Assembly (NCBI RefSeq): GCF_056746865.1
Contig: NZ_CM163382.1
Length of the DNA: 64,000 nt
Reading direction: 5' to 3' (one strand)
This document shows positions 1 through 4,416 of this stretch, in pieces (position 1 is the stretch's first letter; every line of letters starts with the position of its first letter). A program made the translations under genes and the position numbers. The notes beneath the pieces were generated by a model. It was not told the origin of the DNA and made no database searches. It saw only the letters and a program-made list of their open reading frames with translations.

Positions 1-2292
1 TTGCCACGACCGAAACGTATCCGCGTGCCAACTCGTCGTGAATTGGCGTCTTACGGTATTAAGCTGCCCTCACAGCGTGCGGCGGAAGAAAAAGCCCGTG
101 AAGCCCAGCGCAATCAGTACGATTCTGGCGATCAGTACAACGATGATGAAATCGATGCGATGCAGCAGGATGAACTGGCACGTCAGTTCGCCCAGACACA
201 GCAGCAACGCTATGGCGAACAGTATCAACATGATGTGCCCGTAAACGCAGAAGATGCAGATGCTGCGGCAGAGGCTGAACTGGCTCGTCAGTTTGCGCAA
301 ACTCAACAACAACGTTATTCCGGCGAACAACCGGCTGGGGCGAATCCGTTCTCGCTGGATGATTTTGAATTTTCGCCAATGAAAGCGTTGCTGGATGATG
401 GTCCACACGAACCGTTGTTTACGCCAATTGTTGAACCTGTACAGCAGCCGCAACAACCGGTTGCACCGCAGCAGCAGTATCAGCAGCCACAACAGCCGGT
501 TGCGCCACAGCAGCAATATCAGCAGCCGCAACAGCCGGTTGCGCCGCAGCAGCAGTATCAGCAGCCACAACAGCAGGTTGCGCCGCAGCCACAATATCAG
601 CAGCCGCAACAACCGGTTGCGCCACAGCAGCAATATCAGCAGCCGCAACAGCCGGTTGCGCCGCAGCAGCAGTATCAACAGCTGCAACAACCGGTTGCAC
701 CGCAGCCGCAGTATCAGCAGCCACAACAGCCAGTTGCGCCACAGCCGCAGGATACCCTGCTTCATCCGCTGTTGATGCGCAATGGTGACAGCCGTCCGTT
801 GCATAAACCGACGACGCCGCTGCCTTCTCTGGATTTGCTGACGCCGCCGCCGAGCGAAGTGGAGCCGGTAGATACCTTTGCGCTTGAACAAATGGCGCGC
901 CTGGTGGAAGCGCGTCTGGCTGATTTCCGTATTAAAGCCGATGTCGTCAATTACTCTCCGGGGCCGGTTATCACTCGCTTTGAACTTAACCTGGCACCGG
1001 GCGTAAAAGCGGCGCGCATTTCTAACTTGTCACGGGACCTTGCCCGTTCACTTTCGACGGTGGCGGTGCGTGTCGTTGAAGTTATTCCTGGCAAACCCTA
1101 TGTAGGTCTGGAGTTACCGAATAAAAAACGACAAACCGTTTATCTGCGCGAAGTATTGGATAACGCCAAATTCCGCGATAATCCGTCGCCATTAACCGTG
1201 GTGCTGGGTAAAGATATCGCCGGTGAGCCGGTGGTTGCCGATCTGGCGAAAATGCCGCACTTGTTGGTTGCGGGGACTACCGGTTCCGGTAAGTCTGTCG
1301 GGGTGAACGCGATGATCCTGAGCATGCTTTATAAAGCACAGCCAGAAGATGTGCGTTTCATCATGATCGACCCGAAAATGCTGGAGCTTTCGGTTTATGA
1401 AGGCATTCCGCATCTGTTAACGGAAGTCGTTACCGACATGAAAGATGCTGCCAACGCTTTGCGCTGGTGCGTAAATGAAATGGAACGTCGTTATAAGCTG
1501 ATGTCCGCCCTAGGTGTGCGTAATCTGGCGGGTTATAACGAAAAAATTGCTGAAGCCGATCGCATGATGCGTCCGATTCCAGACCCGTACTGGAAGCCGG
1601 GTGACAGTATGGATGCCCAGCATCCGGTGCTGAAAAAAGAACCGTACATTGTGGTGTTGGTGGACGAATTTGCCGACCTGATGATGACGGTAGGTAAAAA
1701 AGTGGAAGAGCTTATAGCACGTCTGGCGCAAAAAGCCCGTGCCGCGGGTATCCACCTCGTACTGGCAACGCAGCGTCCATCGGTTGATGTTATTACTGGT
1801 CTGATTAAAGCGAATATTCCGACCCGTATCGCCTTTACCGTATCCAGTAAGATTGACTCACGTACCATTCTTGATCAGGCTGGCGCGGAATCACTGCTGG
1901 GTATGGGGGATATGCTTTACTCTGGGCCGAACTCCACGTTGCCGGTACGTGTTCATGGTGCTTTTGTTCGCGATCAGGAAGTTCATGCCGTGGTGCAGGA
2001 CTGGAAAGCGCGTGGTCGCCCACAGTATGTTGATGGCATCACCTCCGACAGTGAAAGCGAAGGTGGCGCGGGCGGTTTCGATGGCGCTGAAGAACTGGAT
2101 CCGTTGTTCGATCAGGCGGTGCAGTTTGTCACTGAAAAACGCAAAGCATCAATTTCTGGCGTACAGCGTCAGTTCCGCATTGGTTATAACCGTGCAGCGC
2201 GTATTATCGAACAGATGGAAGCGCAGGGGATTGTCAGCGAACAGGGGCACAACGGTAATCGTGAAGTGCTGGCCCCACCGCCGTTTGACTAA
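1..2292 (+). CDS. ftsK: DNA translocase FtsK, C-terminal ~763 codons (5' end lies upstream of the window)
   Basis: ORF open from base 1; PQ-rich linker repeats, Walker [10 protein letters not shown]-terminal gamma/winged-helix region; matches E. coli FtsK from memory. Confidence 0.95.
442..753 (+). repeat. In-frame tandem repeat, about 8 imperfect copies of a 39-bp unit encoding [13 protein letters not shown] (FtsK linker)
   Basis: Unit cagcagcc(a/g)caacagccggttgcgcc(a/g)cagcagcaatat recurs head-to-tail with point variants; this also generates the spurious overlapping ORFs 70..891(-), 395..775(+), 419..742(-). Confidence 0.9.
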
Positions 2293-2339: not shown

Positions 2340-2450
2340 CTCTATCAACTGAAAATTCAGTATTTTCTTCTTTCCTCAAGCTGATTATTAGCCTGGAATA
2401 GAGAGTAGAGGGAACTCCCGGTCGGGAGTGACGTAATTTGAGGAATAATG

Positions 2451-3062
2451 ATGAAAAAAATTGCCATCACCTGTGCATTACTCTCAAGCTTAGTAGCAAG
2501 CAGCGTTTGGGCTGATGCCGCAAGCGATCTGAAAAGCCGCCTGGATAAAGTCAGCAGCTTCCACGCCAGCTTCACACAAAAAGTGACTGACGGTAGCGGC
2601 GCGGCGGTGCAGGAAGGCCAGGGCGATCTGTGGGTGAAACGTCCAAACTTATTCAACTGGCATATGACTCAACCTGATGAAAGCATTCTGGTTTCTGACG
2701 GTAAAACACTGTGGTTCTATAACCCGTTCGTTGAGCAAGCTACGGCAACCTGGCTGAAAGATGCCACCGGTAATACGCCGTTTATGCTGATTGCCCGCAA
2801 CCAGTCCAGCGACTGGCAGCAGTACAATATCAAACAGAATGGCGATGACTTTGTCCTGACGCCGAAAGCCAGCAATGGCAATCTGAAGCAGTTCACCATT
2901 AACGTGGGACGTGATGGCACGATCCATCAGTTTAGCGCGGTGGAGCAGGACGATCAGCGCAGCAGTTATCAGCTGAAATCCCAGCAAAATGGGGCTGTGG
3001 ATGCAGCGAAATTTACCTTCACCCCGCCGCAAGGCGTCACGGTAGATGATCAACGTAAGTAG
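2451..3062 (+). CDS. lolA: Outer-membrane lipoprotein carrier protein LolA
   Basis: 203-aa product [21 protein letters not shown]... with signal peptide; start moved to the second ATG of the ORF-track ORF. Confidence 0.95.
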
Positions 3063-3072
3063 AGGCACCTGA

Positions 3073-4416
3073 GTGAGCAATCTGTCGCTCGATTTTTCGG
3101 ATAACACTTTTCAACCTCTGGCCGCGCGTATGCGGCCAGAAAATTTAGCACAGTATATCGGTCAGCAACATTTGCTGGCTGCGGGGAAGCCGTTGCCGCG
3201 TGCAATCGAAGCCGGGCATTTGCATTCGATGATCCTCTGGGGGCCACCGGGTACCGGCAAAACAACCCTCGCTGAAGTGATTGCCCGCTATGCGAACGCT
3301 GATGTGGAACGTATTTCTGCCGTTACTTCTGGCGTGAAAGAGATTCGCGAGGCGATCGAGCGCGCTCGGCAAAACCGCAATGCTGGTCGCCGCACTATTC
3401 TTTTTGTTGACGAAGTTCACCGTTTCAACAAAAGCCAGCAGGATGCGTTTCTGCCACATATTGAAGACGGCACCATCACTTTTATTGGTGCAACCACTGA
3501 AAACCCGTCATTTGAGCTTAATTCGGCACTGCTTTCCCGTGCCCGTGTCTATCTGCTGAAATCCCTGAGTACAGAGGATATTGAGCAAGTACTGACTCAG
3601 GCGATGGAAGACAAAACCCGTGGCTATGGTGGTCAGGATATTGTTCTGCCAGATGAAACACGACGCGCCATTGCTGAACTGGTGAATGGCGACGCGCGCC
3701 GGGCGTTAAATACGCTGGAAATGATGGCGGATATGGCCGAAGTCGATGATAGCGGTAAGCGGGTCCTGAAGCCTGAATTACTGACCGAAATCGCCGGTGA
3801 ACGTAGCGCCCGCTTTGATAACAAAGGCGATCGCTTTTACGATCTCATTTCCGCACTGCATAAGTCGGTACGTGGTAGCGCACCCGATGCGGCGCTGTAC
3901 TGGTATGCACGAATTATTACTGCCGGTGGCGATCCGTTATATGTCGCGCGTCGCTGTCTGGCGATAGCGTCGGAAGATGTGGGTAATGCTGATCCACGAG
4001 CGATGCAGGTGGCAATTGCGGCCTGGGATTGCTTTACCCGAGTTGGCCCGGCGGAAGGTGAACGCGCCATTGCTCAGGCGATTGTTTACCTGGCCTGCGC
4101 GCCAAAAAGCAACGCTGTCTACACTGCGTTTAAAGCCGCGCTGGCGGATGCTCGCGAACGTCCGGATTATGACGTGCCGGTTCATTTGCGTAATGCGCCG
4201 ACGAAATTAATGAAGGAAATGGGCTACGGGCAGGAATATCGTTACGCTCATGATGAAGCAAACGCTTATGCTGCCGGTGAGGTTTATTTCCCGCCGGAAA
4301 TAGCACAAACACGCTATTATTTCCCGACAAACAGGGGCCTTGAAGGCAAGATTGGCGAAAAGCTCGCCTGGCTGGCTGAACAGGATCAAAATAGCCCCAT
4401 AAAACGCTACCGTTAA
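3073..4416 (+). CDS. rarA: Replication-associated recombination protein A (AAA+ ATPase)
   Basis: 447 aa, GTG start, Walker [10 protein letters not shown]. Confidence 0.93.

Follow-up and report, generated by a model that had tools for sequence, protein, structure and literature searches.

A 39-bp coding minisatellite in the linker of Escherichia coli FtsK and its identity with the typing marker CVN001

The ftsK gene carried on the window (the whole 64,000-nt stretch of DNA analyzed here) contains, just upstream of the sequence for its DNA-translocase motor, a run of short tandem repeats. We asked whether such a repeat, lying entirely within coding sequence, varies in copy number between strains of E. 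coli, how rapidly it does so, and what the variation might mean for the protein.

Structure of the array and its place in FtsK

The features needed to follow the argument are these:

1..2292, + strand: 3' part of ftsK, comprising codons 606-1368 and the stop codon of a 1368-aa FtsK; the gene start is outside the window
167..318, + strand: older two-copy duplication in the linker, with 47-nt copies at 167-213 and 272-318 that are 81% identical
442..753, + strand: array of eight in-frame 39-bp units (13 aa each), from TRF and unit-by-unit cutting in the ftsK frame
496..560, + strand: first copy of a 65-bp exact repeat (units 2-3), matching 613..677
613..677, + strand: second copy of the 65-bp exact repeat (units 5-6), at a 117-bp offset
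754..2289, + strand: C-terminal motor of FtsK (alpha, beta, gamma), beginning directly 3' of the array

The C-terminal Pfam matches of this reading frame, to FtsK_alpha (9.9e-30), FtsK_SpoIIIE (8.9e-88) and FtsK_gamma (2.6e-28), place it in ftsK; the Pfam domains of the motor occupy residues 879-979, 987-1200 and 1303-1363. The N-terminus is encoded upstream of the window, and in the full gene of an identical record (L001) it matches FtsK_4TM at 5.4e-42. RefSeq annotates the identical record with a CDS 'DNA translocase FtsK' between lrp and lolA, in the gene order lrp-ftsK-lolA-rarA, and the window itself contains the lolA (2448..3062) and rarA (3073..4416) ORFs, so that the 4TM domain and the gene neighborhood expected of E. 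coli ftsK are both present.

When this region was examined with TRF, we observed a single array at 442..750 (period 39, 7.9 copies, 87% matches, 0% indels, score 464), with a second period of 117 bp, or 3 units, at 89% matches. Together with cutting of the sequence in the ftsK frame, this confirmed the roughly eight head-to-tail units that an initial annotation had proposed for 442-753. Tyr closes seven of the units and Asp the eighth, and the flanking sequence on both sides is unrelated. The same annotation had described the repeats as long and perfect, which they are not: units 3 and 6 are the only identical pair, every other pairing shows 2-8 mismatches over 39 nt, and exact repetition extends to no more than 20 bp at the 39-bp offset and 65 bp at the 117-bp offset. 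The amino-acid variants are P to Q at position 6 of unit 4, P to L (CCG to CTG) at position 3 of unit 7, Q to P at position 11 of units 4, 7 and 8, and Y to D in the last unit. The units do differ by synonymous or single-codon changes, as had been claimed, but the change listed as Q/L is in fact P to L.

In the protein, the array is residues 753-856, the last 104 residues of the linker. The crystal construct of the E. coli FtsK motor (PDB 2IUS) aligns to residues 857-1368, residue 857 being the first one past the array, and residues 192-878 are covered by no Pfam domain. Proline and glutamine make up 76% of the array versus 31% of the whole FtsK linker; the other residues are V, A, Y, a single L and the final D, which alone is charged. 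This is the low-complexity composition, without hydrophobic core residues, of a P/Q-rich disordered linker, and the linker has been described as unstructured, PQ-rich and different in length between species (PMC5357621). The Pfam matches, the 2IUS alignment and the composition thus bear out the earlier assignment of the array to the PQ-rich linker of FtsK. Elsewhere in the linker, the duplication at 167..318 encodes a 14-residue peptide twice and is conserved in the FtsK proteins of Citrobacter and Salmonella. A second variable 13-aa array is located upstream of the window.

Three other open reading frames overlap the array:

395..775, + strand: ORF of 126 aa in frame +2, with a low-complexity SSRNSRLRR translation and no Pfam match
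419..742, - strand: antisense ORF of 107 aa, with no Pfam match
70..891, - strand: antisense ORF of 273 aa, running 372 bp and 138 bp past the array, with no Pfam match

They are long (107-273 aa) and open, as a real gene would be, but their openness is due solely to the absence of stop codons from the repeat unit in 5 of the 6 frames. Moreover, their translations are low-complexity, none of the three has a Pfam match, their lengths would shift with each copy-number allele, and the ftsK reading frame is fixed by homology and by solved structures. We give next to no credence to the idea that one of them is a gene, and rejected all of them on the evidence of the Pfam searches and the stop-free repeat. 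The array had been named as their sole cause. This holds almost completely for 395..775 and 419..742, but not for 70..891, to which the array supplies 312 of 822 bp.

Copy number among E. coli genomes

Our search set consisted of 5,426 complete E. coli genomes, for which allele counts came from two systematic spread samples rather than from a full census. The samples provided 94 resolved rows, 9-17 rows per sample having been left out because their BLAST pieces were unjoined. Six units were found in 37 of the 94 rows, seven in 38, eight in 9 and other numbers in 10; by this measure, six and seven units are the commonest alleles and the eight-unit form of the window accounts for approximately 10% of sampled complete genomes. 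The range seen in complete genomes was 1-9 units, in 11 array lengths (39, 78, 117, 195, 234, 249, 258, 273, 288, 312 and 351 bp), all of which are multiples of 3. The classes of 5, 6, 7, 8 and 9 units, and the non-integer sizes of 249, 258 and 288 bp, were checked unit by unit in complete genomes.

The gene was annotated as intact in every record retrieved. Alleles of 1, 2 and 3 units are widespread and carry an intact annotated ftsK CDS; 2013C-4830, AMSCJX03, RM12761 and 873.10 are among the carriers of 1- or 2-unit alleles. Since a single-unit FtsK occurs on 313 contigs, complete chromosomes among them, and the 2-unit allele on 97 contigs, most of the array appears to be dispensable in nature; the natural single-unit alleles indicate that nearly all of this segment can go without loss of ftsK. 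Among the very short alleles in public assemblies, some may reflect collapse of the array during assembly and not real deletions. The earlier expectation that linker length would vary between strains was thus upheld when ftsK was compared across complete genomes, where a copy number identical in all strains would have spoken against it. The risk attached to a repeat in an essential gene was overstated, as none of the length changes disrupts the reading frame. Within FtsK, essentiality is known for the N-terminal membrane domain alone.

Array sizes obtained by PCR, from complete genomes and from drafts may disagree, because breaks within the repeats are frequent in drafts. We considered whether the eight units of the window might be an artefact of assembly, expanded or collapsed. 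Many draft assemblies do end a contig inside the array, and 'partial FtsK' fragments from the N-terminus, 759-791 aa long, break off in units 1-3, from which it follows that the array is hard for short reads, as had been cautioned. For the window allele, however, an artefact is extremely unlikely. Positions 1..1300 are 100% identical to the complete genomes of E. coli 118UI and DG343-1, which are independent and differ in host and country of origin; identity reaches 99% or more in 208 records; the exact 1368-aa FtsK protein is present on at least 1000 contigs; the differences between units make the array resolvable; and PCR has found eight units (allele 7 of the typing marker CVN001, discussed below) in 13% of isolates (PMC5217547). 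The two identical complete genomes and the recurrence of the exact protein led us to reject this explanation.

The array could also be imagined as a contingency locus, hypermutable and quick to switch inside a clone, as it is an intragenic tandem repeat with many length alleles and can change by several units between near-identical backgrounds. Thus, the whole ftsK genes of O145 RM9873 (8 units) and O145:H28 RM12761 (2 units) differ by 2 nt and one 234-bp deletion, the junction of which falls within 25 bp of identity, a recent event; contraction inside ST131, from CVN001 allele 6 to 2 and from 6 to 5, was seen by PCR (PMC3407997). Against such switching, a unit of 13 codons makes frameshifting or on/off control impossible, every allele seen is in frame (11 of 11 lengths, where phase variation would require a shift of frame or promoter spacing that switches expression), and the units are only 87% identical, with exact matches of no more than 20 bp in the 39-bp register. 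Clones are, in addition, nearly monomorphic: 13 rows from K-12 and laboratory strains (MG1655, DH5alpha, BW25113, C600 and others) are consistent with a 6-unit allele, the array in each of three O157:H7 records comprises 7 units, and ST131 was monomorphic or nearly so at CVN001 in two MLVA studies (PMC5217547, PMC3407997). With all alleles in frame and clones uniform, we rejected the contingency reading, which we regard as very improbable. For the same reason, the label of copy-number-prone fits the variation between strains but overstates the behavior within clones such as the K-12 derivatives and ST131.

Constraint on the repeated peptide

Sixteen of the 23 nt differences from the unit consensus (70%) are synonymous, versus approximately 20% expected for random changes. 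Because synonymous differences dominate between units, the array peptide is under purifying selection. Citrobacter, Salmonella arizonae and another Escherichia species have orthologous 13-aa arrays at the corresponding place in FtsK; that of S. enterica subsp. arizonae (record L028), for example, has 5 units at 39-bp spacing between the same flanks (upstream HEPLFTP...). The unit variants in these arrays are species-specific, a sign of concerted evolution. In Serratia, only a degenerate Q-rich stretch occupies this position.

Strong conservation of the peptide hints that it may have some function, and a purely passive spacer would not readily account for strong purifying selection, for an invariant Tyr recurring at 13-residue intervals or for conservation between genera. 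The repeated peptide might then be a functional multivalent motif, for example with Tyr 'stickers' in a P/Q spacer or with repeated docking sites for a divisome partner, whose copy number would tune FtsK clustering or the timing of the translocase. In its favor are the excess of synonymous change just described, a Tyr that never varies at the end of the units preceding the last, across the E. coli alleles examined, retention of the same 13-aa unit in Escherichia, Citrobacter and Salmonella, and reports that parts of the linker contact FtsZ, FtsQ, FtsL and FtsI (PMC5357621, citing Dubarry 2010). Nevertheless, the existence of 1- and 2-unit alleles on so many contigs, the degenerate stretch in Serratia and a Salmonella 2-unit indel swap that had no phenotype in the single assay tried (PMC6137255) make this motif unlikely, although it is the alternative that we take most seriously. 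That swap is the sole one we found, and we found no phenotype data for E. coli alleles. A more specific version, which we consider decidedly doubtful, is that unit copy number is non-neutral, the evenly spaced tyrosines in their P/Q background making weak, multivalent contacts, or the array serving as a length ruler, to set the reach and cooperativity of the motor hexamer from the closing septum. If this were true, the 1-9-unit alleles would tune the timing of chromosome-dimer resolution or of division between lineages.

In our judgment, the array is very probably a coding minisatellite in the FtsK tether, a slow lineage marker that corresponds to CVN001 and to the Salmonella locus STTR7/SENTR2. 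Its eight imperfect in-frame 39-bp units supply the 13-residue P/Q-rich peptides of the last ~100 residues of the linker, a flexible tether that joins the membrane and divisome anchor to the DNA-translocase motor, and would serve there as a disordered spacer that is largely tolerant of length. Whole units are likely to be gained and lost via slipped-strand mispairing or unequal recombination between units, with occasional loss of 24 bp within a unit. As 39 bp is 13 codons, the frame is kept and tether length shifts in steps of 13 residues; as the locus changes slowly, the array behaves as a lineage marker.

Comparison with known repeat loci

CVN001 is reportedly a locus of the 2007 generic E. 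coli MLVA scheme of Lindstedt et al. (GECM-7/GECM-10). Its primers, taken from Table 1 of PMC8143711, map around the array as follows:

329..347, + strand: CVN001-F primer site (AACCGGCTGGGGCGAATCC), exact match, unique in 64 kb
832..851, - strand: CVN001-R primer site (GGCGGCGGTGTCAGCAAATC), 1 mismatch, unique in 64 kb

The in-silico amplicon from the window is 523 bp. Published sizing takes the allele as (product-250)/39, which implies a 39-bp unit (PMC8143711), and by this formula the window gives (523-250)/39 = 7.0, or allele 7, and K-12 gives 5.0; the CVN001 allele number is therefore the unit count used here minus 1. PCR-based typing shows the same length polymorphism (PMC5217547, PMC3407997), and the spectrum from sampled complete genomes agrees with the published frequencies of 40/40/13/5/1% for alleles 5/6/7/8/4 (PMC5217547, Table 3). 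The array is thus a long-known strain-typing marker, and its variation is real but already known. The CVN001 MLVA literature that we found gives no gene name, a literature search on ftsK with repeat-size terms returned nothing relevant, and the link to ftsK is drawn here by primer mapping. Its practical value is modest, in that a routine E. coli typing marker is now placed in the FtsK tether; the finding opens no long-standing question. For users of the marker, size alone hides variation (homoplasy), because alleles of the same size can differ in sequence.

In the aggregate, the array resembles several known systems to different degrees. It shares with the FtsK linkers (FtsKL) of Proteobacteria a P/Q-rich unstructured region between 4TM and motor that varies in length between species (PMC5357621, PMC2800217), but that literature treats the linker whole (~650 aa in K-12), whereas the array contributes just 13-117 aa. 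As in the contingency loci of Neisseria and Haemophilus, a tandem repeat lies in a coding region, where in those loci copy number changes by slippage; in contrast to them, the E. coli units are 39 bp and imperfect, copy-number changes leave the frame intact, clones show almost no length variation and expression is not switched on and off. The correspondence with CVN001 extends to primer positions, 39-bp unit, copy-number polymorphism and allele spectrum, and to the published alleles 4-8 (PMC5217547) and a 2 (PMC3407997) the complete genomes add arrays of 1 and 2 units and non-integer sizes. Finally, the 39-bp VNTR of Salmonella ftsK is STTR7/SENTR2 (PMC2430564, PMC8627665), and the E. coli array, as another 39-bp repeat at the linker-motor junction, is its likely orthologue. 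The two have in common a PQ repeat that is in frame and identically placed within ftsK, use in MLVA and in-frame indels between strains (PMC2430564, PMC8627665, PMC6137255), but the Salmonella locus belongs to another species and has its own unit variants and copy numbers.

Position and structure of the array

In a search of complete E. coli genomes, window positions 1..1300 matched the chromosome of 118UI, from human urine in Mexico, and that of DG343-1, from chicken, at 100% identity. RefSeq gives the 118UI gene order as lrp, ftsK (4107 bp, 1368 aa), lolA and rarA, and ftsK is already under way at window position 1. The annotated ftsK start codon, outside the window at 686..688 of the 118UI record (L001), was TTG in 5 of 5 strains examined. 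By coincidence the first codon of the window is also TTG, and because the window opens on TTG, the truncated ftsK is listed as a complete 763-aa ORF at 1..2292.

Features of the ftsK region
window 2448..3062: lolA ORF
window 3073..4416: rarA ORF
FtsK residues 20-191: 4TM domain (Pfam)
FtsK residues 753-856 of 1368: the array (unit listing and RefSeq annotation)
FtsK residue 857: start of crystal construct 2IUS, the E. coli FtsK motor (structure alignment)
FtsK residues 879-979: alpha domain (Pfam)
FtsK residues 987-1200: P-loop domain (Pfam)
FtsK residues 1303-1363: gamma domain (Pfam)

Since 2IUS aligns from the first residue after the array, the array forms the extreme end of the linker, abutting the motor. 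Reviews describe this linker as unstructured, PQ-rich and of a length that differs between species, with parts reported to contact FtsZ, FtsQ, FtsL and FtsI (PMC5357621, PMC2800217). The P+Q content is 31% for the whole linker and 76% for the array, in which no residue but the last, an Asp, is charged.

The initial annotation had placed about eight head-to-tail 39-bp units at 442-753, and both methods applied here agree with it. Tandem Repeats Finder returned a single array (442..750, period 39, 7.9 copies, 87% matches, no indels), and cutting from 442 in the ftsK frame gave eight 13-codon units, the last ending at 753, with flanking sequence unrelated to the units, so that the coordinates are exact. 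Five unit peptides are alike, and unit 4, unit 7 and the terminal unit are each variant. The units are not, as had been proposed, perfect repeats: a single pair, units 3 and 6, is identical, and mismatches number 2-8 of 39 positions in other pairs. The longest exact repeat is 20 bp at the 39-bp register and 65 bp overall, at the 117-bp register (496..560 = 613..677), in agreement with an alternative Tandem Repeats Finder period of 3 units (89%). With regard to the Q/P and Q/L variants named earlier, Q to P is present, but "Q/L" is really Pro to Leu (CCG to CTG); P to Q also occurs, as does Y to D in the terminal unit.

Three listed ORFs overlap the array:

395..775, + strand
419..742, - strand
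70..891, - strand, 273 aa

As genes these were rejected: their translations are low-complexity and matched no Pfam family, and the repeat unit is without a stop codon in 5 of 6 frames, so that we regard them as shadows of the repeat. All three exist as first described, but the repeat is not the sole cause of the longest, the 273-aa antisense ORF, which runs 372 and 138 bp past the array.

Two other repeats lie in the linker. A 47-nt direct repeat (window 167..213 and 272..318, 81% identical, 105 bp apart) encodes one 14-aa peptide twice; FtsK of Citrobacter and of Salmonella retains the two copies, which marks an old fixed duplication and not a variable array. A second 39-bp (13-aa) tandem array, with unit QQPYYAPA[A/P]EQP[A/V], lies upstream of the window start (L001 1895..2005, ftsK codons ~404-440) and has 2 copies in K-12, 3 in REL606 and 118UI, and 4 in O145 RM9873. 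It accounts for the ftsK length differences left over by the main array, as in REL606 (4029 bp) and K-12 (3990 bp), although both carry 6 main-array units.

Copy number among E. coli genomes

Window 1..1300 served as the query against a set of 5,426 complete E. coli genomes, from whose ranked matches we took 60 evenly spaced records.

Span of the matched region and number of units
1339 bp: 9 units (STEC384)
1300 bp: 8 units (window allele)
1261 bp: 7 units (O157:H7)
1222 bp: 6 units (K-12 MG1655, REL606)
1183 bp: 5 units (strain 5132)
1276, 1246 and 1237 bp: non-integer (82.0311, GPEC1186 and AH19E045)

Cutting fetched arrays between common flanks confirmed 5, 6, 7, 8 and 9 whole units. The non-integer arrays, of 288, 258 and 249 bp in 82.0311 (L005), GPEC1186 (L006) and AH19E045 (L007), hold either a 15-bp mini-unit (QQPQY, the unit minus 24 bp) or a Tyr-less fused unit. 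Typing by fragment size would assign such arrays, present in about 7% of sampled genomes, an incorrect whole-number allele after rounding. With a short allele as query we found 13 records of 1 unit, several of 2 (including 873.10, O145:H28 RM12761 and RM13516, and THO-008) and some of 3 (including RCAD0514). In all fetched 1-, 2- and 3-unit records (L039/L048, 2013C-4830; L040/L049, AMSCJX03; L038, 873.10; L041/L050, RM12761; L044, THO-008; L042, RCAD0514) the ftsK CDS is annotated intact, at 1277-1303 aa. Linker length thus varies between strains as had been predicted, from a single unit to 9 units and always in frame, all array lengths being multiples of three and annotated ftsK ranging from 3834 to 4146 bp (1277-1381 aa).

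Unit frequencies in two systematic samples of complete genomes (94 resolved rows)
6 units: 37
7 units: 38
8 units: 9
all other sizes: 10

The window allele therefore belongs to a minority class of about 10%. Identity to the window of at least 99% over 1300 bp was seen in 208 records; the K-12 counterpart, over a 1422-bp query, gave 1476. Equal-length alleles can differ in sequence, as do the 8-unit arrays of CE10, ECE313 and SC455 from that of the window.

Are the short alleles real? Exact FtsK sequences looked up in a public collection occurred in 313 contigs (longest 5.23 Mb) for a 1-unit protein of 1277 aa, 13 for a second 1-unit allele, 97 for the 2-unit O145:H28 allele and at least 1000 for the window allele. 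The two 1-unit sequences are distinct (…CCGCAGGAT and …CAGCAGGAT), which argues for independent contractions. Given these counts and the PCR evidence described below, wholesale artefact is an unlikely source of the short alleles; individual records may be assembly collapses. Draft assemblies often break inside the array: N-terminal FtsK fragments of 759-791 aa, labelled partial and found in 64 contigs among the members listed (P0020-P0032), stop within units 1-3 (window 442..560). The earlier caution about short reads was thus justified in that the locus is troublesome, but drafts tend to break there rather than collapse.

Conservation and putative role of the repeat peptide

Relative to the consensus unit there are 23 nucleotide differences, 16 of them synonymous, where only about 20% would be expected for random single-base changes; the 47 distinct units of 19 alleles give a synonymous to non-synonymous split of 114 against 58. 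This excess points to purifying selection on the peptide while the DNA drifts. We also looked, in a single genome of each species, for DNA that encodes QYQQPQQPV. Arrays with 39-bp spacing, lying between the shared flanks …HEPLFTP… and …L[L/I] + 12 further residues…, were found in E. coli, in one other Escherichia species, in several Citrobacter (with roughly 2-9 units that can be recognised) and, with 5 units, in Salmonella enterica subsp. arizonae; in Serratia the corresponding place holds no more than a degenerate Q-rich stretch. The array is older than the split of Escherichia, Citrobacter and Salmonella. Units resemble each other more within than between species, a signature of continuing unit turnover (concerted evolution); one 13-aa variant makes up 6 of 8 units in Escherichia sp. 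MOD1-EC7003, and Citrobacter sp. R56 has QPPQYQQPHQPVV-type units.

Strong conservation of the peptide, a Tyr that recurs without exception every 13 residues, and persistence of the array in several genera leave room for a role sensitive to copy number. We consider such a role unlikely, and its specific version, a tunable multivalent tether, distinctly improbable; one unit is enough in many natural strains, which argues that the greater part of the array can be dispensed with. Our literature search found no experiments on E. coli array alleles. The array is best read as a disordered, length-tolerant tether extension between septal anchor and motor, which each unit change lengthens or shortens by 13 residues.

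Turnover of the array and relation to MLVA loci

CVN001 is a locus of the generic E. coli MLVA scheme of Lindstedt et al., with a 39-bp unit and alleles calculated as (product-250)/39; its primers, printed in PMC8143711, each match once only within the 64-kb window:

329..347: forward primer site, exact match
832..851, - strand: reverse primer site, one mismatch

The predicted product is 523 bp, allele 7, and K-12 is allele 5, so that the allele number is the unit count minus one. Published frequencies of alleles 4, 5, 6, 7 and 8 (1, 40, 40, 13 and 5%; PMC5217547) have the same distribution as our genome-derived unit frequencies.

The array changes slowly. In the 60-record sample, 13 K-12 and laboratory-strain rows were consistent with the 6-unit allele, and three O157:H7 records had 7 units. 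ST131 was monomorphic for CVN001 in one study (PMC5217547) and nearly so in another, with allele 2 or allele 5 in single isolates in place of 6 (PMC3407997); the typing of this clone is assembly-independent PCR evidence of large within-clone contractions. The array is thus not especially unstable, contrary to its description as copy-number-prone. Across the entire ftsK, O145 RM9873 (L047, 8 units) and O145:H28 RM12761 (L050, 2 units) differ by two substitutions and one 234-bp deletion, which takes out units 2-7 and has its junction inside a 25-bp identity stretch, the outcome expected from slippage or unequal recombination. We read this as the recent loss of six units, or perhaps as a collapse in the assembly. 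Gain and loss of units would proceed by slipped-strand mispairing or by unequal recombination among the units. In the aggregate, the observation made in the initial annotation is confirmed and its interpretation supported, with three overstatements (perfect repeats, instability and sole cause of the longest ORF).

As CVN001 the array has been described before, as has its orthologue in the FtsK linker of Salmonella, the MLVA locus STTR7/SENTR2. Most 1-3-unit sizes fall below the allele ranges given in the cited MLVA papers, one ST131 isolate with allele 2 being the exception. The Salmonella 39-bp ftsK repeat is STTR7 = SENTR2 (PMC2430564) and has been termed the "variable PQ repeat region" of an essential gene (PMC8627665); in S. 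Enteritidis, an allele swap involving an 84-bp indel in the FtsK linker repeats left egg-white survival unchanged (PMC6137255).
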